64,000 nucleotides of DNA from Lobosporangium transversale (Eukaryota), in contig NW_019028995.1 in NCBI RefSeq assembly GCF_002105155.1, forward strand, positions 310,001-374,000, read 5' to 3'. The notes under the pieces are model-generated. The model had not been told where the DNA came from. It did no database searches and saw nothing but the letters and a program-made list of their open reading frames with translations. How positions within the stretch are numbered: position 1 is the first letter of the stretch; each line of letters opens with the position of its first letter. Positions 6,168 to 64,000 of the stretch are shown piece after piece. The position numbers and the translations under genes were made by a program.

Positions 6168-6202
<35 letters not shown>

Positions 6203-6336
6203 CAGGACAGTCTTGCATCGCTTCACAGCTCATTTACTAAAGCCATCGAATTGCATCACCCGCCTATTATTTGTTATATTCTACCGTCTAAAAAAGAGTG
6301 CTTAGAACATTGATTTAATTTTACAAGGCTCGCTCA

Positions 6337-6809: not shown

Positions 6810-6865
<56 letters not shown>

Positions 6866-7964
6866 GTTGAATTGACAATATATTCCTTACCATCAAATTG
6901 ATCTGTTGTTTTTACGATAATAGATATCGCAATATTCATTATCACAAACGTAGGGCAATAGTTTGTTTTTTTATATCCTTGATTCTATATGTTATTTGGA
7001 GACAGCAGTTGCGTAGCGCAGGATCATCATTGAACTAAGGATTTTATCAATATTTATTTGTTTTCATGCAGAAACTAAGAATCAATGGGCACGGGATGAT
7101 CCAGCATTCATGGTGATTCTTTCAGGGATATTGGGATGTAAGTTGCGCTGCATGAAGCTAAAGATGATTATATCGATAAACTTGAAGGATATTTACGTGG
7201 TAGCGTTAGAAAATTGGTCTAACGAGTGTTTCATAGGCTCCGCTATCGCATGGGGTTTAGTTTATGGACACGGAATGATGGGTATCCTTCGCATGATGCT
7301 TTATATGGTCTTTGTAGATTTCGTGGTCATCGGACTTATTGTTGCAACGATTTGCTGGTAAGTATTATTTTCAACTTATTAGCCCAATTTGTAGGTATAC
7401 TTTGTTAAATTTTATAGAAAGATCCTAAACTTCAATATATCTTCTAATAACAACCATTATTGTTTTCTCCTTGCAATATCTGTTCATAAAGGACAATCGC
7501 CAACCGCTTCCTCACACGAGTAAGCGTTTACTCAACTGACCAAACGGTTGAATGGCAATATGCCTTCGATATTCATTGCAATGCGTTCATGCCTGTGATT
7601 GCACTCTTGTACATCATCCAAATGGTGTTCATGAAAGTTCTGCTCAAGGATTTCTGGATATGTAGTTTACTTGGCAATACTCTTTATCTGACCGCGATTG
7701 TTTACTACTGCTATATTACATTCTTGGGCTATAATGGTAAGATAACGGACAGAAATGTATTATTATTATTGGCTGATTTCGTTTTTATATGGAGTATGAA
7801 TGCCGTGATACTGACTTTTATGTATATATATTATAGCTCTTCCATTTGTTAGGCACCCGGAGATGTTCTTATACCCCATTACGATCTTTGTTATCTTTTA
7901 TGTTATAGTATTGATCCTTGGCGTCAATATCAGCGCCAAAGTTTTGACATTATACTTTGGATAG
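6337..7964 (+). CDS. GMH1: UNC-50/Gmh1 family Golgi membrane protein (about 7 exons)
   Basis: Spliced translation gives RLFRFPHMDFQFALWQMVYLCISP..VYRNIHYHKQTKNQWARDDPAF and VEWQYAFDIHCNAF, hallmark UNC-50 motifs. Introns are GT-AG; stop TAG at 7962-7964. Confidence 0.9.
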
Positions 7965-9789
7965 CTATCGAGAGGGGGGGGGGGGGTTTTTTTTTTTATT
8001 TCTCACCAGAAACGCATGTCGCCAGGGGTTGGAAAGGTGGTAAATATAGCCGTGTACATCAAGACAATTACATTAGGGAATAAAAGCAATTATTGTACGC
8101 TTTTTTATTTTTTTTATTTTATTTTTCTCGTCTGGTGTCTCGACTTTAGGCTTGTCAAATATGAAATGTCCTCAAGCACATATGCGAGTGTAATTATTGG
8201 GCAGAATTCGCTCCAAGGATTCAATAACCTTGTTGTCAACTAGCTTTTCTCAGTCAATTCAAACAGCGTTTGGCGGCTTCTTTACCGATAAACAGTGTGT
8301 ACCATTATGTTATGTTGTATGTCTGTGCGTATTTTGTCGCAGTATGGTCCACAAAACTCCTTCCCTATTTCCATGAGTACGTACACAGTACATGTTCAAG
8401 CAGTGAGAGGAATAGAGCCACTAGTTGTTCTTATCTGGAGGCCACCAAACTTTCCCCTTTCTACTCTTCATACTGCATTGTCTTTCCTCCTAACCATCTT
8501 CCTTCCTTGCTGCATGTCTCTTGACTGTCTCTTGGTCTACAAGCAGAAGCTTCATAAGCTTCATTTGTAACGCTCATCACACAGATTAAAACCTAATAGT
8601 AGACCTGGGGTTTATAAAAAATATGTCGATACAATTTACCAAGACACAGCGTGCTGTCCCGTGTGCTCTTCATGTGCAGACTAGCTTTTAATGCTCTGAG
8701 CATGACATAAGCATGGAGGAAGGAAGATGCTCCGTTCAAGCTAATACTTAATATTGGCTCCAAGGGAGAATAAAAACTATATATCATGAAGCCATACAAT
8801 CATCGTCCCCATCATCGCCATCGATTCAAAATGGCTCAGCAATCCTCAAATCCCAGTTTCCAAAGAGTGAAAGCTTGTGAAAGATGTAGATACCCATCCA
8901 AAGACAAGACGTTCAAACCCAGTTTTAGAAATGCATGGTTAATGATTCTGGTTGGCAGAGTAGGAGCACAACGTGATAGTGAGAGCATTATTGAATGTGC
9001 ATGGGCATTCAGATTGTCATGAATTTTTGGAGTTGTCAAAAAGCTTTTTTTTGAGTTTTCAGCCCAAAATAAATAATTGACACAGCCATTGACATTTGGA
9101 AAAAAAACGTGCCGAGCTGAGAAAGGCACAATAGCCCCGCCTCCCCTGCGTTTTTTTCTTTTTTCCTTCTTCCTTCCTCTATTCTACTGTTATTCTTTCT
9201 TTTCCTTTTTCTTTTTTTTTTTTTTTTTTTTTTTTTTTCTTTCTTCATCTCTTGAAATCAACCAAGATCCAACAGGTTCGTGACGCCAAAACAAAATAAA
9301 AAAGAAACTTGTGCAACCAACCAAATCCAGTGTCCAAAAAAAAAAAAGAGGGCGGATGATAATGGCCAAAGTCAAGACAATTGGCATTCATTCATTCACT
9401 CATTCATTTATTCACTCATTATTATTTTTTTTTTGTTCATCTCTTTCTTAGCTAATTTAGAACAAGCAAGGTGAGTGGATTATTCATAAATATCATCAAT
9501 CTATTCAACTGTTAAAAGTCTTTTCGCGGCATGGCCAACCTACAACAGCAGTAGTTTTTAAAGCAAAAAGAAATAGTGAATGCTTTCGAGGCAACACGGA
9601 AGGTTCACAGGCAGCACAAGCTTGGAACCAATAGTAAAACTCATTCTTCGTATCCCCTGTTTCTTCCTAACAGTCGAACGAGCAATAACGGTAATAAGCT
9701 CATACATGGTTCCTTTTTTTTTTTTTTTTTTTTTTTTTTGATTCCTAGGCCTTAATCATTAAACTGAAAGAATAATAATCTCCCTCAAG

Positions 9790-11302
9790 ATGATGAAAAT
9801 TATCGACAAGATCAAGAACCATGGCCATGAGCATGACAACGCGGCTGTCGAGAAGGCAGCAGCAGAAGCAGCAGCGCAGCAGAGGCGCGAGCAGGAGCAA
9901 AAAGGACCCAAAATGCATCCCGAGCTTTTGGAGCTCTACACCGTCTCAGACAAGGTCTTGGGTGTAGGCACTTTTGCCACGGTGAAGGAGATTGTAGAGA
10001 AATCGACTGGTAACTGCCTCAATTTCAATATTTCTTTTTTTTTTTTTTATTTGTCATGCAATTTTAGTTTGTGTTCCTGTGTGCAATGGACCATTCATTT
10101 CCTTTTGATTTTGTGTAAAAAAAAAAAAAAAAAAAATAGGTAAAAAGTTCGCACTGAAGATTATCCTCAAGAAGACACTTCAGGGAAAAGCCGCTATGCT
10201 GGAGACTGAGATCTCAATCTTGTCCAAAGTTCGTCATCCCAATTGCGTTTCCTTGCTCGAGTTATTTGAGACTGATGATGCCGTCTATTTGATCACAGAT
10301 CTTGCGGAGGGTGGAGAGCTCTTTGATCAACTTTTGCAGAAGGGTTTCTACACTGAAGGAGATGCTGCTCGCTTAGTTTACGAAATTCTATCAGGTGTGG
10401 AATACTTGCACAAAATGGGTATTGTCCACAGAGACTTGAAACCCGAGAACTTGTTGTTCGCAGACAAGTCCGAGAATGCGCGTTTAATGATTACGGATTT
10501 TGGATTGAGTAAGGTTCTGACGGGAGGCAACGACGTGTTGATGACTGCTTGTGGTACGCCCGGATATGTAGCTCCCGAGGTTCTGGAACAAATTGGACAC
10601 GGCAAGCCAGTTGATATGTGGAGTATTGGAGTCATTGCTTATACACTGCTTTGCGGATACACCCCATTCTGGGGAGATGGTAAGCTACCTTTTCGTTATA
10701 TTTTTACTTCAGTCTTAAATAATACAGCATTGTGCTAAAAGCAGCCTTCTCATCCATAATTAGATCAACCTTCATTGTTCGAAAACATTATTTCGGGACA
10801 ATACGAGTATGAAGAGGAATATTGGAAGGATATTTCCGATCTTGCCAAAAACTTTATCGATTCACTTTTGGTCCCTGCTGATAAGAGGCCAACAGCCACT
10901 CTCGCTCTGAGCCATCCCTGGTTCCGTACCGTGTTGGAGCAGGACATGGTGACACCTGTCTCGCCTACCGACAGCGTCAATCTTATGCCTGGAATGCGCA
11001 AGAACTTCAATGCTCGCTCTACTTTCAAGAAGGCTGTTCGTGCAGTGGGTTTGATTCGAAAGATCAACGCCAACTCTTCAGACTCATCGTTTGGTTCGGG
11101 TGAGGATATGGCAAGCCAGCAAGAAGTCACTATGATTGGCGGTAAGGGTCGCCCTTCAAGTACATTGAGCTTCCATGATATCGTGAATGTTGCAGTTCTG
11201 TCTAGTAAGGGTCTTGGCTTGAGTACGACTGAGGAAGACGAGGATGGCGAAACAGAAGGTCTTGAAAAAGCCACAGCAAACTTGGATATTAAGGATTCGT
11301 AA
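9790..11302 (+). CDS. Calcium/calmodulin-dependent protein kinase (CaMK1/CMK type), 3 exons
   Basis: Motifs LGVGTFATV, HRDLKPENLL, ITDFGLS, TACGTPGYVAPE and a CaM-binding-like FNARSTFKKAVRAV segment. Introns at about 10010-10139 and 10680-10763. Confidence 0.93.
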
Positions 11303-11629
11303 AAAATGCAAATAGCCTCCTATTATTTCGTCGTTTTAGTTTAGGATACCCTCACATGCCAGTTACAAAAAAAAAAAAAAAAAAAAAAAACCAGCAACAA
11401 CAACAACATATATATAATTCTGGTTGGATAAAGGTTCAATAATATATATATTACACGAGCTTTATTGCATGCTCTCTAAAAAGATGCCAAATTGTTGTAC
11501 TGCATTGTCGATTGACCCATAAATCCCACACTTCCTTGGCGTACTCTGACTCGACATGTCCTCAGGTATGATACGAAATGTCTCCAGCCCCAAACAATGA
11601 TGACAAGGACAGGGCGATACTCCAATTGA

Positions 11630-12290
11630 TTACGTTTTCCTGTCACGAATGAAGTTGTCAGCCTTGATTTTCTGTCTCCTGACTTCTTTATGATGCTTCT
11701 TGTCCAGGGGATCAGCGAGTCTGGCGGCCCGAACTTCAGGATCGATAATGTCCCACAGCCACTCAGGATAGGCACTGTCTGCAAGAGCGGTTGGATCCTT
11801 GCCATCCTTCATGTAGTTAATGCCCTTGAGCACCGCGCCTTCGGGCGCACTGGAGATAACGGTGCGCTTAGCTAAGTACAGATTGAGGTGTTGAAAATTG
11901 GTTGAAAATATTAACTGACTGTCTCTTGGATTAAATCAATTGATATGATCAAAACTGAACAGTGTCAGTCTGAAAGAGTATTAGGCAAAGTCCTTGAGAG
12001 CTTTTGAAAAGAGACAAAAATCCTGCGCTGAAATAGACCTGATATTTGTACACTACAACACTATAGCTATTGAGAGGCTGATTACGAACAAAAAGAAACA
12101 AAAAAAAAAAAAAAAAAAAAAAAAAAAGATCAATTTTTTTTGCTTGGGGGTCAATACCTTTTGGTGCAGCAGAACTGGATTCTCCCTTGACATTGAGCGC
12201 ACGATCCGAAACCTGAATCCAACGGACTTGACATTGTTTTGATGCAGTTCTGATGGCTGATGAGGCCATCGTTGACATGGACAAGAGCAT
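11630..12290 (-). CDS. MRPL54: Mitochondrial large ribosomal subunit protein mL54 (yeast MRPL37 family), 2 exons
   Basis: Presequence-like exon 1. Exon 2 reads VISSAPEGAVLKGINYMKDGKDPTALADSAYPEWLW...RRQKIKADNF, the mL54 signature. Confidence 0.85.
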
Positions 12291-12525
12291 AGCGTGTTTT
12301 TTTATGAGGGAATCAGTGAGAAAGTGGAGATTGTGAGATGAGCGGGAAGGTTGGTTTGCCTGCTTCGTGTGGCTTGGTGAACAGCAGATGAAAACAAACC
12401 CTCTGCCTTTACAGGCTCAGTCGTGTGAGTTTCGGGGTGGAAGGGAGAAACTGTTGGTTGTCCGTCCTTTTTTTCCTCCATCCATTCAATCCGTCTAGAC
12501 TAGGCTCTGACAACAAATCGCCACC
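12291..12525. promoter_or_regulatory. Probable bidirectional promoter between the mL54 and uL24m genes
   Basis: Only 235 bp separate the two divergent start codons. Confidence 0.55.
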
Positions 12526-13689
12526 ATGCAGCCTTCACTAGTCTCTAATATGCGTCGTCTGATCAACACTAAGCTCCAGCCCACCAGAGCCAAATATGTG
12601 GCACCAAAGGATCAGATCAAGATGTGGAGAATCGTCCGAGGAGACGAGGTAAATGAATATTCAGGACAAGGGAGGGGACCAAAGAAGGCCTTGCAAATTT
12701 TACTTGGTGTACAACCCTGTTTAATTAGAGAGACAGACAGCAACATACTCTCTTTCCTATGCCTTGAAGTTTTTTTTTTTTTTTTTTTTTTGAGCAACGG
12801 GATCAACATATTGACATTGAGTCCTAATGCGTGAGACTGTGGTATGAAAACATACTATCACAAATCCATTGATCTCATTATTAACTATATTATTCATTTC
12901 GATAATGATACTTTCTATACGACTGTTAGGTCTTCATCACCAACGGAAAAGAAAAGGGCAAAACTGGAGTTGTTAAGAAAGTTCTCAGGAGTTTGAACTC
13001 GTTATTGATCACGGAAAAAAACATGGTACGGAAGGAGCATTAAAAAAAAAAAAAAAAAAAAAAAACAACAACAGATTTGCCTAGATATAGAGAGCGAAGG
13101 GTTAAGAACGCCGATTGGATGCATTTTCAGAAAAACTGACCAAGGTCATCGACACAATTGCTCCTGAATCCTACTGGTTATATATATATATACATATATA
13201 GGTTACAAAGCATATTCGTCCCCAGCCCGGAGATCCTACAAAGACGACAAGGGTTCAATTGGAGGCACCTATCCATGTTTCAAACGTATCATTGATTGAC
13301 CCTCAAACAAGGTAAATTCACATCACGTTTTCTTTTAACATCCATGTAACTAAAAAATAAATAAAAAAAATCATTGTGGTCCGACTCTTACAACACTTTT
13401 TTTTTTTATGATGATAAATAGACAACCTGTCAGAACCCATTATCGCGCAGTTATTGATCCTATCAGTGGAAAGTCGGAGCGTAAGCGCTTTGTGGTTGGC
13501 ACGGAGCTGGAGATTCCAAAGCCAAAAGCTGATATTGCTAAATACAAGTTGGAGCGCGTAGAAAGTCCAAAGGATACATCTCCTCAGCTCGCTAGAGAAG
13601 TGACCTTTATTCCTGACATTAATATTCCACCGTTCCCTAGTAGTAGTATCCTCGATGAGCTCAGGAACCCATATTCCAAGCATCGTTAA
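12526..13689 (+). CDS. MRPL24: Mitochondrial large ribosomal subunit protein uL24m, 4 exons
   Basis: Spliced WRIVRGDE|VFITNGKEKGKTGVVKKV (KOW motif)...EAPIHVSNVSLIDP...PPFPSSSILDELRNPYSK. Exons at about 12526-12648, 12930-13025, 13202-13311 and 13422-13689. Confidence 0.9.
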
Positions 13690-14480
13690 AAAAGAATAGA
13701 AAAAAAAAAAAAAAAAGAACCAAGACTTTAAAAAATTTAGAAGTAATTCACGGTATAACATATTAGGAGGAAGGGATTTAGAGCATTTATTATTTCACGA
13801 TTGAGACAACAGGCGAAGACAACAGGTATTTGGCGACTGGTGATAGAGAACAGACAACTGGAATGTTGATTTGGTCGTCTATAAAAAAAAAAAAGATTTT
13901 TCATATTTGTACACAAGCACAAAAATTAACCGGTTGAGAATAAATAAATAAATAAAAAAAGAACACAGAGATCGTGTAGAGTTAGATCTGTGAATAACTC
14001 GCTTCAACTGCTGCACGGAATGTTAGTGAGCATGCAGTGAGCATGCATGGGAGAACAAAAAAGAGATGGATATTGCTCCATAAGCATGAACATAAGCATG
14101 TGCAGGTGTGACACTTAATAGGGTAATTCTCTGCACATGTCTACATGACATTCGTGAGTCACTAGAAAAAAAAAAAAAAAATTGTGACACCTGCATTTAA
14201 GGCTTTTTTTAATGTCTTCTATGTGTATAATGTGAATACTCTAAACTGAACGTTATGGGCAAAATACTATGATCCAGGGCAATAAAGGATACTATGCAAT
14301 GAAGTGTTTGAACAATAAAAATGCTTCCATGAACAAGAAAAAGAAAAAAAGTGACAGCACGGAGTGAAAAAGAGAGAAAAGAGGGGGTATAGGCACAATT
14401 GTCCATTGTGCTGATCAGCCTTGAAAAATGGCTCGGAAATCCTGCTTGATTTGATCGATCAGTCCGACAATCGATTTGCT

Positions 14481-14723
14481 TTACTTGCGGACATTTGGGG
14501 TCCAGTAGACGACCTCGTCCTTCAAGAGAACAGCAGCACCTGCAACGACGATACCGCCTCCGAGAACGGTATAGGCAGCGGCCTTGGCAGTCCTTGAGCC
14601 ATTAGCAGTTGCGGGCATGGCATTCTGTGCGATCGAAGCAGCGGCATTTGCCTTTGAGGACTGAGAGATGAATCGACGGGCAACAAAGGCCTTGGGAGTA
14701 ACAGCGCGGATTGAAGGCAACAT
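14481..14723 (-). CDS. Small (80 aa) probable mitochondrial membrane protein of unknown function
   Basis: Arg/Ser/Ala-rich N-terminus free of acidic residues (MLPSIRAVTPKAFVARRFISQS), one hydrophobic helix, and a GC-rich codon-biased ORF in AT-rich surroundings. Confidence 0.65.
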   Translation of the reverse strand: MLPSIRAVTPKAFVARRFISQSSKANAAASIAQNAMPATANGSRTAKAAAYTVLGGGIVVAGAAVLLKDEVVYWTPNVRK

Positions 14724-15813
14724 GGCTATGTATTTGATTTTAATGTAAGGATGAGAGGGAAGAGGATAATAGAGAAAGGATGTGGTTGTTATAGATCTTT
14801 TCAGAAACCGAGTAAATCGTCAGAAGGAAAGAGAAGAGATGCGCTGCTTTTTATAGCCCTTCAAGATTTTTTTTTTTTTTTTTTTTTTTTTTAGCGGAGA
14901 TATATTTTCAACATGATAACGCAACGCAAAAAGGAATTTACACCAGTAGTCATAATCCATGAACAAGATTTTCATGTACGGCTCTGCGCATCGAGTCTTC
15001 GCGTACATGCTCTATAATATTCCATAAATAGCGCCAAGCAAATCAAACAACATCGCAGGCCACTCCATTCGTTGATGTGGAAGGCCAGTGATGAGCAAGT
15101 CGTTCCACAATTAAATCGGCTCTTGTTCTGCCCACGTTGTTATGTAAGTGGTCCAAGACAGTAAGTGGTCGACGGACTTTTTATTTTATTTTTATGATGA
15201 TAAGGAGGAAGAGAGAGGGGGAAAGGAGAGAAAGAGAAAGGAGAAAAAGGAAATCACCCTGCCTATATCAACTACAAGGGTTCGCTTTTGCAATTGCATT
15301 CTTGGAGATGTGAATGATTGTCTTATCAATTTTATGTGAACAGACAGACAATAAAGAAAGTGGGTCCAAAAAGACTTTGAGGATGGGGCACAGGCGGAAA
15401 TGTGGGGAATGGAGAAAATACGTTGATCTGTGGGGACAGCCTTCAAACGTTCAAGGATATTTTATAGCCCCGACTTATCACATCTACTACAAATATATAT
15501 ATACGTATAATATCAATGCGGTTCAACTTAAGCCATAACAATAACAATAACAATAGCAATATTAATAACGCCATCAACCCCAACAATGACAACGATAGCA
15601 ACAATATTATATAACACAGCAGAAGCAGTCGACATTAATAACCAGCCCTGTTGTCATCATTCGATCGACAGACCCCCTGTGCTCCGCATAGGATACAGAT
15701 ACAGAATACAAAAAATTGTTGTGTCAATCACGAATCTACAGTATAAACGCGACCTTCATATTTATACATTTTCTACATGTATTTTTGTTTTTTTAAACAG
15801 GACAACAAGCAAA

Positions 15814-18231
15814 ATGACACTGTCCAAAAGCACAGCACTAGCCATCACTGCCAAAGAGTTTGCAAGATGGCTCTCCCCATTATACAGTCGACAAAACAGC
15901 ATTGCTTCATGCTTGGAGCAAGGTCTACCAAACAATGAAAGACATAAAAGTCATTCCATGGATCAGAATCCCACTGACATTCATCAATCTCGTCTAGAGT
16001 CCAAGGACCACAACATTGCTATAGCTGTCTCTGGTGGTGTTGATAGTATGGCTCTTGTAACACTGTTGGCAAAACATTATTATCCTACACAAGATAGAAC
16101 TAAACAACAACAGCTTCATACTGTCCCTACAAAGCTACATGCCTTAATTGTCGACCACAAACTAAGAGATGGCAGTTCTGAAGAGGCTGCCTTTGTTGCA
16201 CAACAGGTGCAAAGACTGAGTATGTTGTTATGGTACACTGGATTTGACCAGAAAGGAAATCTGTGAACCTATTGTTGTTACTATGACTATTGTTATAATT
16301 ACTATTATTATTATTTTATACTGAAAGCTAAACTGTTGAACGATATCCAGATGTCACCCCGCATGTACTTACGTTGGATTGGATTGCCAAAGACAAAAAC
16401 AGTGGCCAGAACCAAAACCATCAGAATGATGATAATGATGAGATTTACCAGCTTAATAGACCTAGTAAAGTTCACCTCGAGACTAGAGCGCGCGAGGAAC
16501 GATATAGGGTCATTGCTCAAAAGTGTCACGAACTTGGAGTCAGAGATTTGTTTGTGGGTCACCATTCTGGTGATCAGGTTGAGACTGTCATCTTTCGGTT
16601 CGCAAGAGCTAGTGGCATTGATGGCCTTGCAGGGATCCAAGAAGATACCCCTTTAAGCGTTGTAAACGTACCAGAAGGTTTAAATATCCAAATCATCAGA
16701 CCACTTTTAAAAGCTACGAAAGTAATTAATTGAAAACAAAGGAATGACCGTTGAATAGACGGAAAAGACAGGAATCAACCATCATAGGACTAGAGTTTCT
16801 AATTTATATCATTTTATATCATTTATATCTTTCAGGACCGCCTGAAGGCAACATGTAATGAAGCAGGAACCCGATGGGTTGAGGACCCTTCGAACAAGTC
16901 ATTGGATTATCAACGGAATGTCATCCGGCATTTTCAGCAGGACATAGATGCGTGTGTCGAGAAGGACCCAAACTCGGAGCTGAGTCCTTTATCATCGAAG
17001 GCTTGGTTGGAATTCCGTGCAAGGATGGATCAACATCGGCGAGCGGCCTGGGATCAAGGTAACATCTATGTGATTCCAGAGTAATTATTTATTACTATTA
17101 TTATTATTTCATTATCATAATTACCATATCATCATTATAATAGAAAATGACCTAGTCATATTTTCTGCTCTATCAATATTAGTGAGACCATGGTTACGGA
17201 ACATCTTCTTTGATTCTGCAAATGGTGTCTGCTATGTAAAATTGCAGGCGACCAGCACTTCAGAGGATGCTATAAGAAGTACATCGATTCCTACAAAAGT
17301 GGAATGGTTGGAGAGATCCCAGAATCATGTGGCCATGCGCCTTGTCTCCTATTTAATACACTGGGTGAACTGTAAAGACCACGCTCCCCGTTCCGAAGAT
17401 GTGCAGATGTTGTTGAAGCAACTGAAAAAACCTTATTCTGTTATTGGCTCTTATTTTGAAGCAACTCGTATGAAAAGCGTCTGTGATAGCTCAACAAAGT
17501 CTATACAGAAAAAGAAGCGCGCTTCCAATCGTTCATCTGCTGCCCGACAACAAGATATATCATCAAAGTTCGCCATAGCCATGACTGACAGTCATTCTGA
17601 AGCAATGTCACTTCCGCCCATCAATTTAGCAGGCGTGCAATTCTCCCCACCAAGAAGCACAAAGGGCCTCCCTGATTACTGGACCCTTGCTCGGCAACCA
17701 ATGTCCCGTGCCGATCGAAAAGCCGTTACGATAGCATTTTCGATAGGGGGCGATAATGAAGAAGCTAAGAGAGACATTTTCTTTGATGAGAGTAAACAGA
17801 GCAATGAAGTTAACCTGCTTTGGGATCAACGTTTTTTCCTCAAGATACAAAGCAGTAGCTTTAGAAGCGTTCCCAATGCTCCATCAAGGGGTCGGATATA
17901 CATAAAGCCGATGCGTCAGGAGGATGCATCAATTATTCAAAAACTAGAAGCATCCGGCCAGCTGGAGCAATCAAAGACGATAGATCTCCATACATGGATG
18001 ACGGCTGTACCAGGCAGCTGTCGGTTTACTGTCCCTGTTGTTTACCTAGAAGGCAACAGCGGCGATACCGGGGCTGAGCCAAGAAGCCAGATGTTTTTGT
18101 CCTTACCCACCCTGGGCCTTCATATGAAGGCTTCGCCATTTGCCATCCAAAGTTACTTCAAATCCAAGCACCCAGTGGACGGACCAGATATGGCTTGTTT
18201 AAAAGAGGCATTCAGTAAAATGTTGAAGTAG
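15814..18231 (+). CDS. tilS: tRNA(Ile)-lysidine synthase-like PP-loop ATPase, 4 exons
   Basis: Motifs IAVSGGVDSMAL, LIVDHKLR..S.EEA, ETRAREERY, GHHSGDQVETVIFRFARASGIDGLAGI, IIRPLL and WVEDPSN. Introns at about 16220-16350, 16722-16835 and 17059-17182. The true start is uncertain. Confidence 0.88.
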
Positions 18232-51600: not shown

Positions 51601-52631
51601 TAGTTGCCATCTCGATATCGTATGCGTCCTGACTATAGTTAGTTTCAAATACGACAATGGCTGTTACCAAATTTTAAGCTCATTGTAGTCAATTGACATC
51701 ATGACTGATCGTGGTCATATTTTTTTTTTTTTTTTTTTTTTTTTGCTTACCTAGAATTGATTGTGGGAAATTTCTGCGCACCAAGTATGGAATACCAGCC
51801 AATGGTGTCAATCCTGCTCAAAATCCTTGGTGAGCAAAGTGTTTTGATGGCGACCTGTTGTGCTGGTCCTAGAATAAGGATATTCTCAAACTCCTTGATA
51901 GTGATCGGATGTTTGTGCTCTAATGCCGGGGGCTTTGTCTGTGCAGTGCTAGCGATGCTGGATATAGATGCCGAGCCTGGGATAATCCCAGATAAGGACG
52001 AGATCGAATATGCAGGTGAATGTGGCCCTGAGCCAAATGCTCCGTGGCTGCTTTGAGGGTGTGGGTGATGCTGAAAATCTTGATCGAATGACGAATGAAA
52101 ATCGGCCGCAGCTGCGTTTATACTGCTATTCGAATTCCTAATAGCTGAGGAAGCTGGGGTCTCGAGTGTTGGTGCAAGTGTTGGTATCTGTCCACCAAGT
52201 TTGGCTTGTCGCCTGCTTGCAATAGTAGCAGATCCCTCAATGAATGGGCTTGGATGAATGCTGCCTTGTCCGCTGGAATAACGACGACTAGAGTCAAGGA
52301 CAGGTCGTCCGGTATAAGTATTATTGTCACTGGCTGGCAAATCCGATACGAATGGACTGTTGTAGCCTGCGCGATATTCAACACTGTTACGATGGTGAAC
52401 AAGAGCAATATCGTATCCTGATGTATGAGTCCCAACGGTAGAAGTTGCAGTCGTGTTTGGCTTTTGAGTTGAAGATAAAAGGATACCACTGCTGCTTTCG
52501 AGGCGATGAAGTGGGAGTGCGGCGTGTTCTTGGCTGTGCTGATGTATCTGAGCGATGGGTGCAAGTGCAGCAGCAGACTCAAAAGCCGATGAGGGTGAAG
52601 ATGACCGAGCAAGGCCAGAAGTCGTAGTCAT
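48635..52631 (-). CDS. DYM: Dymeclin (DYM/HID1 family), multi-exon
   Basis: Motifs [31 protein letters not shown]...[10 protein letters not shown] and [14 protein letters not shown] are typical of dymeclin. The last exon ends ...GNQA* at 48635. Confidence 0.85.
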
Positions 52632-52956
52632 TCCGACGCATTAACCGTACCAGCAGAATATGCGCGATCGTCGATGTTTATATTGTTTGAAGGAAAGGAG
52701 AATGGGTGAAGAAAAAAAAAAAAAAAAAAAAAAATGAAACGAAATGCATGACTCCTCTCATTGACACATTCTCTGGTTCTCCCACACACCTCCACGTCTC
52801 TTTCGTGTCTGTCTGTTACGTGTCTATTCATAGAATTTAATTTGATTAAAAATGCATGTACAACAAACACTTATTGTGTGGAACAGACGTACTATTTACT
52901 CACTCTTGTGCTGCCTCCACTTATTTGTCCCATATCCTTCCAATTATACTCTTCAT

Positions 52957-55434
52957 TTATTTTGAAGTGACAGAGGCGTCCATGTCTTCCAACAAGAGAT
53001 CAGTGCTCATTCTATGCGTATCTGACGAATCTATCTCTATTGCCTCATCTGCTAGGAGATTACTGCTCGATTCTCCTACCATTTCTATTGCTGCTTCATC
53101 ATCCAAGAGGACCTCTCCACCAATAGGCCGGTCTAGCTTGGACTTACCGCGATGATGCATGCCTTTAGACTGCCGCTTCCTACGACGGCTATGGACTGCC
53201 GCCAGATCAGCTCCACCTCCATTCAAACTATTTACAGAAGTGGCAATGTTTAGGCTCGCGATTTCCTTGGCGGTTTTTCTGGCTTTTGCTTTGAGTTCGC
53301 GCAATTTCATAAAGTGATAGAATCCAATTCCTGAAAGTGTAATGAAAAGTCCAAGAATGTTGACAACCGTGAGTTTATCATCAAACACCAAAGAAGATAT
53401 GATGATTGTTATGACCTCCTATTAGCCCACATGAAAATATATACAAAGCTTTAATGATTAATATCAAAGAAAGCCCATATAGCAGCCATTTTAAAAAGGT
53501 TTAAATCAATGGCATCTATTTACCTTGATAATCCCTAGCACAGATAATGACACTACGCTTGTCCGGGCAATTAAGTTGAACTCTGCCAATACCATGCTGA
53601 ACGCAAATATGCCTCCTAAGAGCAATAAGCCTAATGTCCTTAAGCCTGAATCAACAGTTTGGAAAAACTCGGAACTGAATATGTTGGTATAGCCCTCAAA
53701 TACCCCAGCCACGATGAAAAGGCATATTCCCATGATTGGTGATAGGAAAAAGATGGTTGAAATTGGATTGGCTAAACTTCCAGATTTCGTGTTTGTTCGC
53801 TCCAACAATAGCTGTGTTAAAGACCACCTTAATCCACCCAAGACTGAAGCCAGCATGACTTGGATGAATCTAAAGCAAGAAAAAGAAGCCATGATCAATA
53901 TAGCATATGTATTTAAGCATAAAAGCCATGACTTGAGATATAAACTTACCCGGCAAGCACGAAATTCACCTCGGACATAACCATCATGAAAAGCCCAATG
54001 GATATAACGCCAATGACTCCTGCTAGGGCCCAAGTTGGCCTCTCAAGCTTAAATAAAAATGCAAACAACAGTACGAAAGCAAGCGATGAAGATTTGCACA
54101 TGGCTAACACAAGAAAAAAGTTAGGTTTCCCTATTATCGTCGTTATCTTGAAGAACTTCTGTCATCAGTTGCATACATACTATAAAAGGCAAGAGTAATC
54201 GACTTTAAGCTATTGTTGCTGAGCCCAATGTCTAGCCCAGATGCCAAAGCACATGGCATGATCTTTGTTCTAGAGTTGAATGAGGAAAAAAGCAAGAGAG
54301 GACCAATTATCATGCCAGTTTCAGTTGTCAGTTTTTAAACTGCTTCCCTTTTTTAAAAAATAAAAATAAAAACACTTATAAATACACGCAGGAATGCGTT
54401 ACCCAAAGTCTTTCGCTGATGGTGCTGCTTGCGGCCGTAGAGACGGTATCATTGATAATGTGATAGAAGATAACAAAAATTGCGTCACCATGTGCAGGCA
54501 CGTTGTAAAGAGTGGAAATCGGAAACTGTAGTGGTTGGGTGAGAACAACCATTTGTTGTAGAATGATAGAGAAGTCGAGCAGCCATACCTAGTCAAAACC
54601 AGTAAGCGCAAAGCATGTTAGCATGACAGAATGTAATGAAGCGACATATGTTATTTTTCCCAAAAATATCATCGCCTAAAAAAAGGAAACATACCATGCA
54701 ACAATATAGAAAGCGCTCCAGAACAGCTTGATCCTAAGCTGCTTCTTTGCTATCAATTTCTCCTGCTCTGTTAGCATCATCACTGGTACCGCGGTATGCA
54801 TTAACCCGCGACTTCGATTCCGGTGGCTTTTCTTCCTTAGTCTTTTCCCTGCTTGTTGTCTTTCAGACTCACTTCTACTGGTCCTTGACTGCCGTGGATC
54901 GTTACTAACTCTTGTCAAAGGCAGTACATCATAATCGTCGTCGTCTCCGCCACTCATATTCTTACCCGAACGATAATGTTGTCGATAATCACACTCAAGA
55001 TCGAGACCAATCGTGGTTCCTGTACCGGTCTCGCCCACACGCATCCCCATACCCATCCCTCCTAGGCAAGCGTTTTTTGAAGTAGCCAAAAGATGTCGAG
55101 TGTCTTGATCCTCATATGTGCTCTCTCGATCATCATCCCCTGCGTCAGTACTATAGCCATCATACCCACCACTGTCCTGTTCAGAATCGTGTTCGGACGA
55201 ATAGTATGCCGAAGTGTCCCATTCGATCCCATCGTCGCTGCTATGACTTTCTGAATTAGATAAGCTGTTTCTGCGGAGTCGCTCATGCTCTTGTATAAAC
55301 CCCGTAGTTGTACGGGCTGATAACTTTGGTCTATTAGGAGCATCCTGTCCTGGAGAACTACCTTCTATACGAGTTGCTGTGGTTTCAGTGTTGTAGCCTG
55401 TCTGAGCTATTAGATTTATACTCGAATCTGTCAT
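52957..55434 (-). CDS. Nucleotide-sugar/triose-phosphate transporter family protein (SLC35C2/Ymd8-like), multi-exon
   Basis: Motifs WYGCSTSLSFYNKWLF, FPLFTTCLHM, GGLRWSLTQLLL and AEFNLIARTSVVSLSVLGIIKE, with multiple TM helices. Confidence 0.88.
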
Positions 55435-55723
55435 GATGTCAAAAGGGTGTTCGCCCTCATAAGCTAATTATTCCTCAATAACTGAGGGTTGTGGACATTA
55501 AAGTAAACTGATCTACACAAATGATGTCACGAAGATGCGATGCGATGTATCTGGTGTGATGGATGAAAACAAGAGAAAAGGCAAGTAAGCAGAGGAAGGA
55601 TACACAACAAGTGACAAGCAATCACATAAACAAAATGATCTATTAAACGCGCTTTTATGATGTGTATCAACTGTTGGTACATTTTTATTACTCTTTTCAT
55701 GCACTGACTATCCCTTTCCTTCT

Positions 55724-57293
55724 CTAGAACTTGAAGACATGGTCATTAGTTAATCCAAGCTCCTTCAAGGCACCATCAACATCACCTTGGGTGAAGTTAG
55801 GGCCTTTAGGTCCACTGACAGACTTCATCATAGCTAATAACAGACATGTCGAAATTAATTAACACGCAAATCCTAGTTTTGCTAACAGTTTAAACAAGGA
55901 AGGATCAAACTTACGTGGTGGTCCACAGACAAACACCTTGGTGTTGCCCTGTCCGATCTCAGGGTTGTACTTCTTGATTAGCTCAGCAGTAACGTATCCA
56001 GTAGGGCCAGTCCATCCCTCTACGGGTTTATCAACGACGTAGGTAACCTTGAAGCGGTCTGGATGGGCCTTAGCAAAGGCATCAATCTCATCCTTGAGAA
56101 TAATGTCTTCTGGAGTGACATTAGCGAAGATAAGGTTAATCTTAGTTTTATCTGCCTTATCTTTGAGGAGTCCACCGATGATCTGAATCATGGGTGTGAT
56201 ACCGGAACCACCAGCGATCAAGGTGACAGTCTCATGCTGGTTAGCTTTGAGAGGATACTTGCTGATAGGACCTAGCGTCGCACGCACAAGTTACGTATAC
56301 ACAAATCTACTCAATATGGCGCCAACATAATAACAAAAAAAAAAGATTCTTAAAAGTAATAATCGATACTGACCCTTGACAGACAGGGTGTCACCGGGTT
56401 TCATGCTATGGATGTGAGATGACATTGGACCTCCTGTTACATGTAGCATTTACGACATGAAGAAATTTTTAGTTTGTGTCATGACAGACAGGTACCAATT
56501 AAGTCAGACTGATATTTTCCGTGAGAAACATTTCTATCAAAAAAACACATACCTTCATAACGCTTGATGACAAAGTCGAATGAACCAGTACGATCAGAAT
56601 CAGAGGTAGGAGTGTAAGGACGAATAATAGGCTTGCCATCTTCTTTGATAAACTTGGTAACAACACAGGATGCTACATCCAAACCCAACTTCTGGTTCTC
56701 CTCCAGCTCAAATGTAAAGCGACTGGTGTTTGGAGTCAACTTTTGCACACTCTTCAACTTGAAGTCAACAAAGGCGTTAGGATCCAAAGCAGAGGAAACA
56801 GGGCCCTTCTTTGTAGCCTCATCTTCTACTGTGGGAGCGGTAGTAGATGCGCCTCCCAACTTGTCACCATAATACATATACGCGGCTACATTGGAAATTA
56901 TGTTAAAAAATCATGATAACAAGTAGAACTAAGATCTTCGCTATTTGTCATCTTGATGAATAGTCATGGTGGGAAGAGAGAGTCATATGGATATAAAAAA
57001 AAGAGAGAAAGAGGAAGGAGACAGACGACCTACCTGCAGCAGCGACACCAAGAGGAAGGCCAACAGTCAGCAACTTGCTGGAACCGCCCGCTGGCTTACT
57101 AGAAGTCGAGTAAGATTGCCTCTACAGGAAAGCATAGCAAAGGATAATTGTTTTAATTGAATCTCTCCAATCATTGTATCTGAATTCCCTTTGAACATTG
57201 GCCATAAGGAAGCTCATATGCAAGCAAATAGAAATATTAACATACTGAAAAGGCACGAATACTAGATTTGAAAGGGCTGATCAATCGGAACAT
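55724..57293 (-). CDS. MCR1: Mitochondrial NADH-cytochrome b5 reductase, multi-exon
   Basis: Motifs IIRPYTPTS (FAD-binding RxY(T/S)), LIAGGSGITPM.Q and VFVCGPP, a C-terminal VFKF*, and a presequence-like first exon MFRLISPFKSSIRAF. Confidence 0.92.
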
Positions 57294-57605
57294 CGTGAAC
57301 GCGAATGCAGAACAGAGTGGAGGAATGAGTCTGAAATAGAAACATTGCAAGGTGCGTGAATTCCAATTAAAAAACCAACTCTCAAATACGCCACATCCAT
57401 TAAATCCCACGCACGCCATGCAAATTTAATATTTCTCTTTTTTCACATATAAAGCATTAATTGCCACTCTTTCGCACTGTACTTTATTTTATTTTTTTAA
57501 TAACAGGGATCTCCAGGGATTAAGAAATACCTATGACTTATTGAGTCATTAAGCGCCTTTCATTATCGAGTATAGACAATATTGTCTGTAGACTTTTTTT
57601 TAATT

Positions 57606-57770
57606 ACAAGGACCCTCAGAGTCATGGGATGATGTTATCTGTTGATCTGTACGGTTTTTAAAGTTAGTCCAGAAATTCAAGGGCAAAAGATTAGGTAGAA
57701 AGGATACAGACGAAAATAAACAGAACTTACAAATTTTTTTGTGGGTGTGCCGGCACCCAAATACTTGTGT
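57606..57770 (-). ncRNA. Candidate Fanzor omegaRNA scaffold / element 3' end
   Basis: Lies directly 3' of the RuvC stop codon. It contains hairpins (TGGGTG..CACCCA at 57742-57759; GACCCTCAGAGTC at 57611-57623) and three blocks conserved in a second copy at 63602-63680. The RNA call is inference only. Confidence 0.4.
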
Positions 57771-60700
57771 CTAGCGTCGTGCGCGCTTTGCACCCGGAGC
57801 AGACGACTCTTCCGAGGGTTTGCACTTTGCAGGTCTCTCTTGCCTCTCAATTTGAGCAAGACCGATTCTTGCGATGTTTTCCGCCCCTACTGCGTCACGG
57901 TCGAAGAATACCTTACATGCGCGGCAATATTTAGAGCAAGGGTACACAGCCTCTAAAAAGCTATCGCAGAGGGGTCGGGGACAGCGGGCGCTGGTGTAAA
58001 ATTCGTGCGCCCCTACAGTGAAGTGTCCTCGTGCTTTGACCTAAGCGTTTCAAATGGCAGTCGTTTATTAGCAAAGGTTCTATGGCTTTCCAGCTTTTTT
58101 TACTTTTTTAAAAAAGTCATACCTGTGTGACAAGGTGTCTCGTTATAGTAGTGTGCTTGCTGGGAACTCCCTTACTACTTTCAAAGGACCCTAAGCCGAC
58201 GACAAGCACTCCTTTTTCCCCGAGCATCTTCAATACTCGCTGCACCGCATAGTCGAACGTAGCTCGTTGAGCCTTTCGTAAGTCCCATTTTTTTTTTTTA
58301 GGTGCCATCTGGACTCGTAGAACTCTTGAAGCACATCCAAATTCTTTGATCCTGTCTGTGTCTGGGATTCTTCGTTCATCCATTGAAAGTACTCGTTGTA
58401 CGCATCCCTTCCAAACACAGGGGATGGCGCTCTCAACCTCAATCATTCCTTTTTCACGCTTCCTTTTGTTCAACAGGTGATTGAAGCGGAGGACGGGGAG
58501 GTACAAGAACCTGCTTCTTACCTTCACCGTTTGCCGCAAGTTAGGGTTGTGAGGGTCCAGCGAGGAAAACGTAAGGGCGTTAACAATACCAGGATCACAT
58601 CCGACGATAGTTGTGGTGTTTGCGGATGGGCATCGCCCTGGCTTGTTGAATGTGAGCTCAACGTTTTCAAGCAGCTTGGAGCTCCTCTTCCAGTTTATGT
58701 TTGCATAGTCTTCATCTGTCAGGTCTTCACCGGCTGCCTTTGAACACGTCGTGTTGAGAAATCCCTGAGAAAACTCCAGTTCTTGGCTGGGGTCTTCTTC
58801 ATCTACGTCAGACTGCTGCTGTCTCTTCGTCTGGGTTGTGTCATAGGCAAGTAGATTCAGAACTAGACCGTTGGTAGAAATCGTTTCTTTGAGTTTGAAC
58901 CGAGTTATATCTTTGTCTTGTGACTGTAGGAATACTTTGTCTCGATATCCATGAACCATGCGATCACCTCCAATGTCACAAAAGAGAGCCTGTATCAAAA
59001 CCCCTTTTGTTCCCTGTACACACTCATACATTGCAGTCTTGGAAGCATTATTGAGAGGCAGAATGCGCTCCAGCAGCTGCTTGGTATCTTCGTTCGCCCA
59101 GAGGACGTCAACTAGGGCGTGTTCAGACAGATACACATACCTGGGTGACCAGGGGGGCGTAGGAAAGTCTGAGTATTTTTTCACTTTTTTGTTCTCCCGC
59201 AAAAAAAACTCAATGTCGCTCATATCTTCGTTTGTTTTCTGGACATCAAACTAGAAAAAAATAAAAGAGTCTGAATATAGAGCATTTGATTGCAGAATAT
59301 GCATGAAAATAACCTACACAAGGTTATACCATTGCGTTCCTGTAGTGCTGCCTTAATGATGTCTGTACTTGGCCCATTAGTAGCTCTGACGCTCTTGGAA
59401 ATGAGATCTTTTTGGGATCAAGCCTTGCACGTCCCCCAATGTGATGTCTATTTCCTTTATTGGGGAAAGTTCAGTGGTGGCCTTGAAATGTTCATAAGCG
59501 AGGATATAGTGGGCGTTTCTACCGCCCTTCCTTGTTTTTCTGCCCTCGCGTAAGCTGAATAGGGGGCCACCTTGGCCACTTAAAAGAAGGGTGGCGAGAC
59601 AGAAGGAATAGTTAGTGCTATCCAAGACCTCGTCCAGTGCCTTTTTCCTCGACCTTGCTACCCCTGGTAGCCGCATGATCCTCTCAATGTCCAAGGCAAT
59701 CGCCGAGTATGCATAGCGGCGTAGTCGGCTGCGGACAGCAACTGCCCCTCGGATCTGGCTTGCAATATTATCCCTTTCATCTGCGTCCAGTCTGCCTTTC
59801 CTTGCCATGGAAGCCTTGAGGGGTCCAATTGTTAAGGCCTTGATAGGATGCTTACTACTGTAGCTGTGATCAACCTTCGTAGCATCCTTCAAGTTCCTAA
59901 TTGGTGCACCTTCTTTTTTTACCCCTGTGGAGCTTCTTGCCTTTGTGCTTCCGCTTTTGTTTTTTCTGTTGCTCTTTTTTGCCTTTTTCCGACGTGGTGG
60001 ATGCCTAAGGCCCGGCCTATCGTGCTGACGGCAGTTACTGATATCAACTGTGCGCTCATTCAATATGCTCGGCTTGTCAGAAAAGATGGGCCGGTACTGG
60101 TTTCTATGTGACCCTTTCGCTATATAGAATGATGGTGCGTCTCTACACTATCCAAGAAAGGGACTAACGATTAGTATTGGGGACGTTTGGTTTCAGACCA
60201 AAACTATAGCTTGAGCTTTCTTACGTTCTGCGGCGCTGCGTTCGCCTTTGCTGAGCCATTCTATGACGAAGTTCCTTTCCTTTGAGTAGACACTGCTTGA
60301 AGTTATCGAACTCATTGTTCGATGGTAACGCTCGGGCCGACGTTTGATGGCCGGAAGTAAAAACACGGAGAGCTACTCTGAAACGGCCTTCTTCAGAGGC
60401 TGCGTTCCTTCCCAACATCTTACTAGCTTCCCTTAGGTAATCTCGAAGCATCTTATTGTAGTTTCTGCTCCACGCAACCTTTTGAATTAATTGAGGATTA
60501 TTAATCGGGCCCAACGTCTCGAGGTTCCTTGAGTAATCATTGCCTGCGATGGCACAGAATAACACCAGATATTCGTGTGATGGCAGGCTTAGTGCTTGGA
60601 TAACGTTATCTACATCGTAAACCCCAAACTTCTGTCTACGGTGTGGAGGGGGTCGCACTAGGATGCAGACTCGTTCGTACGCAAAAAAATCAGAGTCTTG

Positions 60701-61248
60701 GGATATCACGATCCTATCATTCTCCTCATTATGGCACCCTATGCATGGGTCCGCTTCATATGTACACAGACAGACATCGAAGACAGAGCCAAGGCCTATT
60801 GCCAGCTGATCCTTGAGGGTGTGGACTTCTCGAAGACCCTTCTGGATGCGCCTTATGACTTGAGGACGAGTCCATACCCCACTCTGAGAATTTCTCCCGA
60901 AGGCGTTCATATCGTTCTCCAAAGCATCCATATTTTTTTGTCTTATGGCTTGCCGTTCTGTTCTTGCTTTTTCTTTCTCATTACAAGGCCTCCCATCAAT
61001 ATGTATAGTCAGATTGTCCGTTTTAAAAAGATCCTTTATCTCGAGCGTCAGGGACCTTCCTACATCAATGATGGATTTGCTTTTCATCTTTGCATGGACG
61101 TCTCTACGGTGGATGTTGTAATAGAACGTACCGAGGAGATCTACATGAACAGAATGGTCAGGATTTGCCGCCAAGAAAGTGCCCACGTCAGTTTCCGAAG
61201 GTAAACCCCGCGATCCGCAACCAGTTTGAAGAAGAACTTCAGCCCCAT
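57771..61248 (-). CDS. PIN (FEN1/XPG-like) nuclease fused to Fanzor/TnpB-type RuvC endonuclease; 4 exons, about 1080 aa after repairing four homopolymer frameshifts
   Basis: Exons at 61248-60225, 60142-59330, 59250-58123 and 58040-57771 join in phase through GT-AG introns. PIN motifs: MGLKFFF, HVDL, HIDG..CNEK, EAD, SQDSDF, GNDY. RuvC-I is IVGCDPG, RuvC-II is AHEFYTSARC, the Zn finger is CPRPLC...CRAC and RuvC-III is DRDAVGAENI. Confidence 0.8.
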
Positions 61249-63565
61249 GATCAATATCTAAGCGAAGGAGAAAGAAAAAAGGAAAGATGGTGGTGATGAA
61301 AAGAAATGAAAAAGAAAAAAAAAGAGCGACAAAGGTATAAATGGATGAGCTTTTTTATGGTTTAAAGATCCAAAGTGAATAGATAAAGAATATTGAGGAA
61401 AAGATACAGGAACAAGTAGCAGTGGTAAAAGGGATGGGACTTTGGAGCGAGCGAGTGGGAAAGGAGGAAGACAATGATCCCTTTTTATATCCTGGATTGA
61501 TGATGAGTTTTATCATTGTCTCATATAGTTTTGATATCGATCCTTTGCTTCACAGGCCACATCAATTTTTATTCAGTTCCTTTGTTTGGATTGGGGTTTT
61601 GTCCAAGTCAATAGTAGAGATCGACAAATAAATACAAGCTCTCGCATGAATGGCAGATCGGAAACAATAGCACTGAGATACCAAAGTGAGCATTCAAAAA
61701 AATTATCTCCATATACAGCATACAGTGTTGATGTCGATCCTTTGTTATACAATTTTTTTTCAGTTTCTTTTTGCATTGGCCCTTGCTTTGTGAGGAATTT
61801 AATGAATAAAAAAAAAAATTATAGTATTAAACAAGGGTAGTAAATACGTTGACAGATTTGACTCGGTGTGTAGGAACTGGTTTTGAAACAGGTGATTACA
61901 TCCTTGTCAAAGGTAACAACAAGAGAAAAAAAAGTCTTTTTTATCAAAGAATGGGTTCAGATGTCGCTCTTTGCTCCAACAGCCCCAGTACTATTGTGTT
62001 AAAGCAGAGATATTCGTTGGCTCTCAGGTTTCGGCATCAATGGCGGAGATAGGAGTGATGTAGTTGCATGCGCTTATTGCTTGGAGTAAAAGCTATCTAA
62101 GCACCCTTTCTTACTGGACGATGCCTTGTTAATGGTGATATTGCGCAGCGCCTTGTGGATGGAGGGAGAGCAGAAGCGAGAGTGGTGGTTTTTGGCGGTC
62201 GTTTGGTGTGTGTATGTGCGAATTTGATGGTTGATACCAATCGCCAAATTATATGAATATAGAATTACAGAAGCGAGATTAATACCGACGCGTTTGAGTT
62301 TCTTTCCTTGAGATTGTTATAACCATGGGATGATTGCGGAGTGGCCACCAAAATAGTTTGTTTATTTCTTCTGGAGGCTCCATTGGAAAGCGCTTGTGTT
62401 TTGAAGTTGCCTAGAAAACAAAAAAAAAACGCCGCGATGCAAAATGTGTTTCTATGCGTGCAAAAACCAAAGAGATGCTTTAGCTGTTTATTCAATAGCC
62501 TGGTGCATGTTCATGTACACACGACTGATAGTGATTGATTAACAAAAGGAAACTCTCGTCTCATCCCATGCATGTACCGCCAAATATTTTCGAAACAATA
62601 AAAGGCATGTACAGACAACAAAGAAGCACGTCAACTGTTTGATTGCTTGATCAGTATCCTCCAGTTTACTCACGTATAATATTTTTTTCTATTCACTCTT
62701 GGCGTGCTTGTACGTCTATTAAGTTTTCTGTCTGGTCGTATAACACTAGGAACCCCCCACGCCAGAAAAAAAATACTTCCCATGGTTGGTGCCAGGTCTG
62801 AAAACAATAATAATAATGCACATGCCGTGCATGGAAGATAGGGCCTTGACACTATGACCATTGTTATGCAGACTCACCGAAATCAACTTGTGATCACAAC
62901 TGCTACTCATGCTCTGTTGCCAAGGGCTTGAAAAGGGACACAAACCTCTTCTTCCTTGTTCTCATAATCCCTCACATCCTTTCAATACTTTCGCCGTAAA
63001 TGTCCATTACATTTGAATCACACATAGGCACTTCACCATTACATATATCACCTTGGGTATGATACGTTGGTGTGGTTCCCTCCAGTTTCAACAGGCCCAA
63101 CAAACTCTATTAGCAGTGCTTACCAACCCAGATATATCAAAGGAACGCAAGAAGACGAGGAAGCAAACGATGTGAAAAATCAGGTCTCGCCGAGTTGTAC
63201 AGGAAAAGATCAAGTTAGTCAAGCTTCATGGTGCGGTAGAATGAATCAACTCAGATTGCACTGCTTTCAAGTCGAGACTACGGCGGCGAATATTACCATT
63301 GCTATATTACACCAGTCAATAAATAAACGATACAATGGGCTCCCAAGCGGATGCTAGAGTCATGCGAAAGTTTTCATGAGTTTTTTTATTTGCACAAATA
63401 AAGAAGCCAGGATAGTTCCTGGATTTTAAGCCCATTTATAATGGTAAATTTGCCCTTGTTATGGATGAAGGGATAATACTAACGTAGATGGTGGGGATTT
63501 ATGTCTGTTTCGTCCAGCGTTCAGCCGTTCTTTCAGGATCGTCCCGCGCAGCTATCGCTCGACTT

Positions 63566-63598
<33 letters not shown>

Positions 63599-63601
63599 AT
63601 A

Positions 63602-63680
63602 ACAAGGACCCTCAGGGTCATGGGATTTATTTTCTACACTCTATGAACAAAATGCTCCAGAAACTATAGTCAATAAACAG
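63602..63680 (-). repeat. Second copy of the element-end motif
   Basis: ACAAGGACCCTCAGGGTCATGGGAT (63602-63626) is 24/25 identical to 57606-57630. It is followed by the shared blocks TCCAGAAA and AATAAACAG and preceded by poly-T. Confidence 0.8.
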
Positions 63681-63795
63681 CTATTACTGCACAAACGACA
63701 AGAGCCGCTGTATCCATGATTTCATAAACCCTGACCGCCGTGGTTGGTACTCAAAGTCCACCTTTCCGACGTGGCCTGTTGCGCAACGCGACAAA

Positions 63796-63999
63796 TTATC
63801 CGCTATCCATAGTCATCAAAAACTTCATTCCACCTAGCCGCTCCATCACGTCCAGTTTGGTTTTCCCAAGGTAACTGTCCCGGACTCGGTCATCCGCGAT
63901 CTTGTAGATCTCTTTTACATTCAGCTTCTGTCTTTGTCTGAGGGAAGGGACAAGGAAATCATTGCTACTACGTCTGTGCTCCCCAACACAGTTGCGTCC
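63796..63999 (-). CDS. C-terminal end of an unidentified ORF running in from the right edge
   Basis: Open frame GRNCVGEHRRSSNDFLVPSLRQRQKLNVKEIYKIADDRVRDSYLGKTKLDVMERLGGMKFLMTMDSG*. The sequence is GC-richer than its flank; no family was recognised. Confidence 0.4.
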   Translation of the reverse strand, partial: GRNCVGEHRRSSNDFLVPSLRQRQKLNVKEIYKIADDRVRDSYLGKTKLDVMERLGGMKFLMTMDSG

Positions 64000-64000
64000 T

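Follow-up and report, generated by a model that had tools for sequence, protein, structure and literature searches.

The last exon examined here belongs to a single four-exon gene that fuses a FEN1/EXO1-like N-terminal nuclease (the 'head') to a Fanzor1, and both sets of catalytic residues are present. The gene occupies the minus strand from 61248 to 57771 of the window, the whole 64,000-nt stretch of Lobosporangium transversale DNA that was analysed, and its summed exons (61248–60225, 60142–59330, 59250–58123 and 58040–57771) encode ~1,077 aa. It is carried by an element that is present in many copies and whose 3′ boundary is sharp. Our preferred reading, held with moderate confidence, is that the window contains a frameshifted, likely dead copy of this element, and that intact relatives probably cut DNA under the direction of a guide RNA, with the head predicted to trim at the break. 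An earlier note, made from the sequence, had picked out the last exon; the more unusual feature, the FEN1/EXO1-like domain, and the four-exon gene as a whole went unseen. The parts of the element are as follows.

61249–63477, minus strand: repeated 5′ non-coding part, with raised depth and internal deletions; its longest wholly contained stop-free frame is 109 aa
60225–61248, minus strand: exon 1, with the ATG and the FEN1/EXO1-like PIN nuclease with its seven acidic residues; frameshift at 61202
60143–60224, minus strand: intron 1, 82 nt, phase 2, with the acceptor placed from the reading frame; a phase-2 intron precedes the same FY motif in metagenome locus L002
59330–60142, minus strand: exon 2, coding for the basic linker and the Fanzor N-terminal/REC region, with a frameshift at 59419 and two mutually compensating indels at 59972/59914
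59251–59329, minus strand: intron 2, 79 nt, phase 0; joint 59249–59330 in an X6 contig of depth 86, and an intron at the same place in metagenome loci L001 and L002
58123–59250, minus strand: exon 3, coding for the Fanzor WED/RuvC-I region, which includes CDPG; the frame shifts at 58420 and again at 58288
58041–58122, minus strand: intron 3, 82 nt, phase 0, GT-AG, with a branch-like GCTAAT
57771–58040, minus strand: exon 4, with the rearranged RuvC-II Glu, C4 zinc finger, RuvC-III RD and basic tail; 89 aa and TAG
57636–57770, minus strand: 3′ non-coding end of the element, 135 nt, ending ...CAGATA at 57636; the expected site of an ω-RNA scaffold

Exon 4 is the genuine last exon of a TnpB-derived Fanzor1, as the earlier note had proposed for a hidden exon at this position. 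The peptide quoted there is the translation of minus strand 58040–57771, and the '90 codons' ascribed to it are 89 residues and reach 90 when the stop is counted. Its length alone is unremarkable, since 103 stop-free frames of at least 50 aa occur in 52000–64000. The peptide matches the Pfam profile PF07282 (Cas12f1-like_TNB) with an E value of 1.1e-5 and 26.0 bits, just below the 26.3-bit cut-off, and shares 52% identity over 77 aa with the C-terminus of a Mortierella alpina protein 1,053 aa long. Searched alone against solved structures, it gives no match below E 0.6. The catalytic Glu (HEF), the four zinc-finger cysteines (CPRPLC and CRAC) and the RD are all kept. Two catalytic acids, those of the Glu and RD motifs, thus lie in the exon as claimed; the third (CDPG) is in the upstream exon, with two frameshifts between. 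A fifth cysteine (YPCSK, at 57938) is private to this copy, the sister protein P0042 having Arg there. In these respects exon 4 is ordinary for a Fanzor1. That automatic calling overlooks it also proved correct: the gene models of sister copies P0042, P0073 and P0070 skip its first third, including the catalytic Glu, so that the proteins appear inactive or partial in databases.

Intron 3 is real. It reads GTATGA...GCTAAT...TTAG and has a GC content of 33%, against 55% for exon 4. The exon 3/exon 4 junction (HLVTQ/VKARG) aligns colinearly and without gaps with FILRV/QSMG of the Mortierella alpina protein P0003, and an intron sits at the identical codon and phase (HVITR/IKSLG) in metagenome locus L001, from a distant relative. 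Splicing is observed in sister copies and not in this one, and for intron 3 weakly. Junctions across 58122–58041, to which the earlier note had looked for a check, point both ways. In one X6 contig from a sister copy (depth 8.6), 58214 and 58042 are linked across 88 letters, where 89 would be expected if spliced and 171 if unspliced, but a deeper X6 contig (depth 31) continues unspliced into the intron. What is apparently the same diverged copy as in the spliced contig (the same 135-letter piece, with 11 differences and five gaps) continues into intron 3 in the DNA runs X3 and X4. We take X6 to be a probable RNA run, a guess made where no run is recorded as RNA; the two indications are four spliced joints in the neighbouring gene, present in X6 alone, and zero depth in the intergenic flank. 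For intron 1, no splice joint appears among the rows shown.

The C-terminal two-thirds of the protein bear the signature of a Fanzor. The RuvC-I motif is present as IVGCDPG in exon 3 (D in 74 and P in 56 of 81 non-gap rows), and the rearranged catalytic Glu stands six residues before the zinc finger in HEFYTSARC (E in 45 of 52 non-gap rows). DPG and this Glu arrangement, ExxxxxxC, are the Fanzor fingerprints given in PMC10711439. A second published description, D-x(125,275)-[TS][TS]xx-C4 zinc finger-x(5,50)-RD (PMC3627910), is matched by TSAR, the C4 finger and RD. One cysteine pair is spaced Cx4C here, in contrast to the CxxC of the Fanzor regular expression in PMC10711439. A profile built from five homologues and run against PDB sequences has a sole match, SpuFz1 (8gkh; E 0.009). 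In the predicted model of the full-length homologue P0002 (1,186 aa; pLDDT 83.6), SpuFz1 takes Foldseek ranks 1–3 and 5 (E 3e-11 to 3e-9), with FEN1/EXO1 chains among the remainder. The sole PDB profile match, the top fold match and the FZ1 label of a sister copy place the gene with Fanzor1 rather than with Fanzor2 or TnpB.

The head is recognized from its fold. The predicted model of the N-terminal piece from this window has a pLDDT of 93.9, and Foldseek matches it to human FEN1 (E 1.4e-9) and to EXO1, with TM scores of ~0.5–0.6, placing it among the FEN-like PIN folds. Sequence identity to FEN1, EXO1 and XPG is 12–14%, and Pfam XPG_I appears on the head only at E 0.042, below the cut-off. 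The acidic set of EXO1 comprises D30, D78, E150, D152, D171, D173 and D225 (PMC5499597). Seven acidic residues of the head follow this set, matched by the order of motifs and not by residue-level structural superposition. Across 30 homologues they are retained in 20/20, 20/20, 23/26, 23/25, 27/27, 26/27 and 28/28 non-gap rows.

The basic tail of exon 4 (AKRARR) had been likened to a monopartite nuclear localization signal (NLS), and its KRAR does fit K(K/R)x(K/R), which we take to be the monopartite pattern. The family is enriched in this pattern near its C-termini: 10 of 46 distinct tails have it within their final 15 aa, versus 78 of 1,687 windows, or 4.6%, in the same proteins and 4 of 335 windows in host frames. 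The tail is nevertheless absent from four of the five closest full-length C-termini: P0002, P0003, P0004 and P0006 terminate before its position, and P0001 has a basic end. All 18 long homologues that were checked contain an internal 20-residue window with 8–16 Lys or Arg residues, often in the linker. As judged from sequence, the tail may be an NLS, though not the conserved one. The accompanying idea of eukaryotic adaptation through introns and an NLS is not new, intron gain and NLSs in Fanzors being already reported in PMC10530073.

The boundaries of the element are placed from contigs of its other copies. Contig depth jumps at ~57630 and remains high to 64000 (flank versus element, 130 versus mostly 4,000–16,700 in X1 and 6–10 versus mostly 130–670 in X3, values that are sums over contigs and not copy numbers). 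Contigs in X1, X3, X4 and X6 exit at 57635/57636 into mutually differing flanks (agreement 0.48–0.68 where several were pooled), indicating that the 3′ boundary is sharp and the insertion sites numerous. On the 5′ side, the end is placed tentatively near 63477/63478, from one loose end at 63478 (X6) and one contig exiting at 63477 (X8). The frame listing contains no transposase-sized frame in 61249–63477, the 30 other frames of the window scanned with Pfam include no transposase match, and no terminal inverted repeat is found among the matches listed. Because the 5′ end is known from two contigs, full-length copies could carry a transposase elsewhere. The 135 nt that separate the stop codon from the element end fold no better than shuffled sequences (z −0.04 and 0.33), and a comparison of the 3′ region with Rfam gave no match.

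Other features of the repeat can be noted. The minus strand reads TA at each putative end (63478–63477 and 57637–57636); this may reflect duplication of a TA target in the absence of terminal inverted repeats, and depends at its 5′ side on one contig. Large internal deletions in other copies (59306–61854 and 62105–63303) mark candidate non-coding 'ghost' derivatives. Shortened variants of the 3′ part (57679–57759 and 58277–58422) reach a depth of ~200–214 in X6, and the 57679–57759 variant is at single-copy depth in the DNA runs X3 and X4. These short variants could represent an expressed short derivative or a source of guide RNA, the contigs revealing neither level nor strand.

Upstream of the element, the minus strand carries the 3′ end of a LINE-type retrotransposon at 63590–64000, with the C-terminus of an endonuclease-RT-RNase H protein, a stop, a 3′ UTR and a long poly(A), all at high depth. 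An Atlas search of this upstream frame gave a 0.75 match only; a homologue search then identified the LINE C-terminus, frame 63799–63999 matching at 79% identity the 67 C-terminal residues of an endonuclease-RT-RNase H protein of 1,887 aa. The 37-nt direct repeats at 57594–57630 and 63590–63626 belong to the LINE. We considered these repeats as ends of the Fanzor element and rejected them, as most copies end at 57635/57636 with unrelated flanks. The repeat at 57594–57630 is a LINE 3′-end remnant with A8 that lies 5 nt beyond the element end, and a more decayed one is found at 57491–57515. The LINE remnant and the putative guide of this copy overlap, but the first five bases of the guide differ from LINE positions 63627–63631. 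An intron-containing gene (55723–57250, minus strand), with the element lying ~400 nt upstream of its first exon, has FAD_binding_6 and NAD_binding_1 domains in Pfam and is spliced in X6; we take it to be an FAD/NAD-binding oxidoreductase of the cytochrome b5 reductase type. Pfam matches in 1–55500 are those of ordinary host genes (kelch-BTB, protein kinase, PP-loop, EF-hand, tyrosine phosphatase, subtilase and dymeclin).

The fusion occurs across Mortierellaceae and in a chytrid. A profile search returned 943 proteins at E 0.001 or better, 150 of them listed. Among 164 proteins examined, 45 match the head profile, 69 the last-exon profile and 20 both; these 20 include near-duplicates and one marginal 205-aa match, and the profiles were built from the same 164 proteins. 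Named carriers of both parts are Mortierella, Linnemannia, Entomortierella, Dissophora, Actinomortierella and the chytrid Synchytrium. The nearest named proteins among the matches listed are 78–82% identical and annotated in Lobosporangium transversale itself. A metagenome scan gave two loci (L001 and L002) among 356 matches, both too short to reach the element ends, and none of 104 pattern matches in viral contigs was confirmed.

Members of this family are present in published data tables, and the two-nuclease fusion goes undiscussed in the available parts of the papers searched (including PMC11423790 and bioRxiv 10.64898/2026.06.03.729735). Supplementary file 3 of PMC10432273 (2023), which does not mention XPG, gives the label FZ1 both to the sister protein ORZ22893.1 (P0073) and to a full-length fusion, KAG0303305.1. 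The PMC10711439 supplement has many Mortierella and Linnemannia matches, with 'XPG' and 'PIN' absent from its available text; 'XPG' is likewise absent from the accessible part of PMC3627910, and two supplements of PMC10530073 do not name these genera. In the literature searched, a scope that excludes subscription journals and preprint supplements, no paper has both Fanzor and Mortierella, and XPG is absent from the 40 matches listed of 101 in one literature search.

How the intact members might work can be outlined from these parts; we infer each catalytic step from the anatomy observed, and the role of the head purely so. By comparison with studied Fanzor1s, an ω-RNA would derive from the 3′ end of the element, and its guide would be the flank beyond 57636. 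By analogy with SpuFz1 (PMC10432273), the target would be the empty site left after excision or the one on a homologous chromosome, which the Fanzor half of intact members probably cuts under the guide RNA. The chemistry of FEN1 and EXO1 suggests that the head would resect 5′ ends or remove flaps at the break. Such trimming would favour repair from the element-bearing template, by which the element would be copied back. Insertion at new sites would most likely require a transposase acting in trans, because none is seen in the element.

The copy in the window would be excluded from this scheme, as it is probably dead. Relative to contigs of other copies it has six indels (61202, 59972, 59914, 59419, 58420 and 58288), of which four shift the frame and two (59972/59914) compensate each other. 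Its 29 private coding substitutions fall 12:7:10 on the three codon positions (third-position excess, p 0.52); these are sites at which ~95% or more of X1 depth differs from this copy, with lower shares dropped, and they come from two 40-row tables with 513 and 58 further rows outside them. It is the presence of six indels absent from other copies, together with the lack of third-position bias, that points to a dead copy, and the term 'intact' used in the earlier note is therefore true of exon 4 only. All six indels sit in short homopolymers and no in-frame coding segment contains a premature stop, a pattern that sequencing error could also produce. The copy might then be intact and active, its frameshifts being assembly errors, and its retention of every catalytic residue fits this view. 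We regard it as unlikely: the single-copy flank (56000–57663) is identical to the short-read contigs, with no differences and no gaps over 1,664 nt, the substitutions are not concentrated at third positions (10 of 29), and the annotated sister copies are fragmentary too. It is highly improbable, and largely refuted, that the gene was carried by the neighbouring LINE as a 3′ transduction with the 37-nt repeats and poly(A) as its ends. The LINE 3′ end and its 37-nt copy flank the gene as this would require, and some Fanzor1s are reported near LINEs (PMC10530073), but in most copies the element breaks off at 57635/57636, before the LINE remnant is reached, and unrelated flanks follow; introns, moreover, are retained in the DNA copies.

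The remaining alternatives concern the role of the fused protein. It could itself be the mobility machine, its two nucleases, aided by host repair enzymes but by no transposase, excising the element or copying it to new sites. An element with many insertion flanks, no transposase-sized frame, no terminal inverted repeats among the matches listed and two active sites conserved across genera would be consistent with this. Neither nuclease family, however, is known to perform strand transfer. Fanzor1 elements that lack a transposase of their own are also on record, with mobilization in trans proposed for them (Spu-1, PMC10432273; PMC3627910), so we consider a self-mobilizing protein improbable. 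The head could instead be a passenger or act on RNA, for example in maturing the ω-RNA or its own transcript, and play no role where the DNA is broken. PIN-like domains have both RNA and DNA among their substrates, EXO1 removes RNA primers (PMC5499597), and most Fanzor1s function without such a head. The fold, however, resembles that of FEN-like structure-specific 5′ nucleases and not that of RNA-directed PIN toxins, and the full conservation of the seven acids speaks against a passenger, making this option quite doubtful. We retain the reading in which a Fanzor cut is followed by trimming of the break by the head.

The closest Fanzor1s are SpuFz1 of Spizellomyces punctatus (PDB 8gkh and 9ceu–9cez; PMC10432273) and PpFz1 (9cf0–9cf1; PMC11423790). 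The protein shares with them DPG, RD and the Glu in its rearranged position, six residues ahead of the zinc finger, SpuFz1 being the best fold match, and like SpuFz1 it belongs to a multi-copy element without a transposase of its own. It differs from both in ~330 additional N-terminal residues that form the FEN1/EXO1-like nuclease and basic linker, in its size of ~1,077 aa, its three introns and its Cx4C pair, and in the frameshifts of this copy; no 30-nt inverted repeats were found. With the FEN1/EXO1/XPG (Rad2) 5′ nucleases the head has in common the fold and seven acidic residues in EXO1-like order; unlike them, it forms one protein with a RuvC nuclease and is encoded on a repeated element. 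The intron-containing, NLS-bearing Fanzors (PMC10530073; CRe-1 to 3, PMC3627910) likewise have spliceosomal introns and basic segments that resemble an NLS. The NLSs tested in those studies are N-terminal, whereas the candidate here lies in a C-terminal tail that varies, and the linker holds a more strongly basic cluster.

The family joins two nuclease active sites, both kept across several fungal genera. It is a natural counterpart of hand-engineered nuclease-exonuclease fusions, and its built-in 5′ nuclease allows one to test directly whether the Fanzor cut feeds homologous repair. A bolder interpretation, which at present seems to us a long way from likely, is that these elements form a transposase-free fungal class in which an RNA-guided Fanzor cut and a FEN1/EXO1-type nuclease are combined in one protein, and which spreads to new sites by that pair alone together with host repair. 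If true, the protein would be a natural cut-and-resect genome editor.
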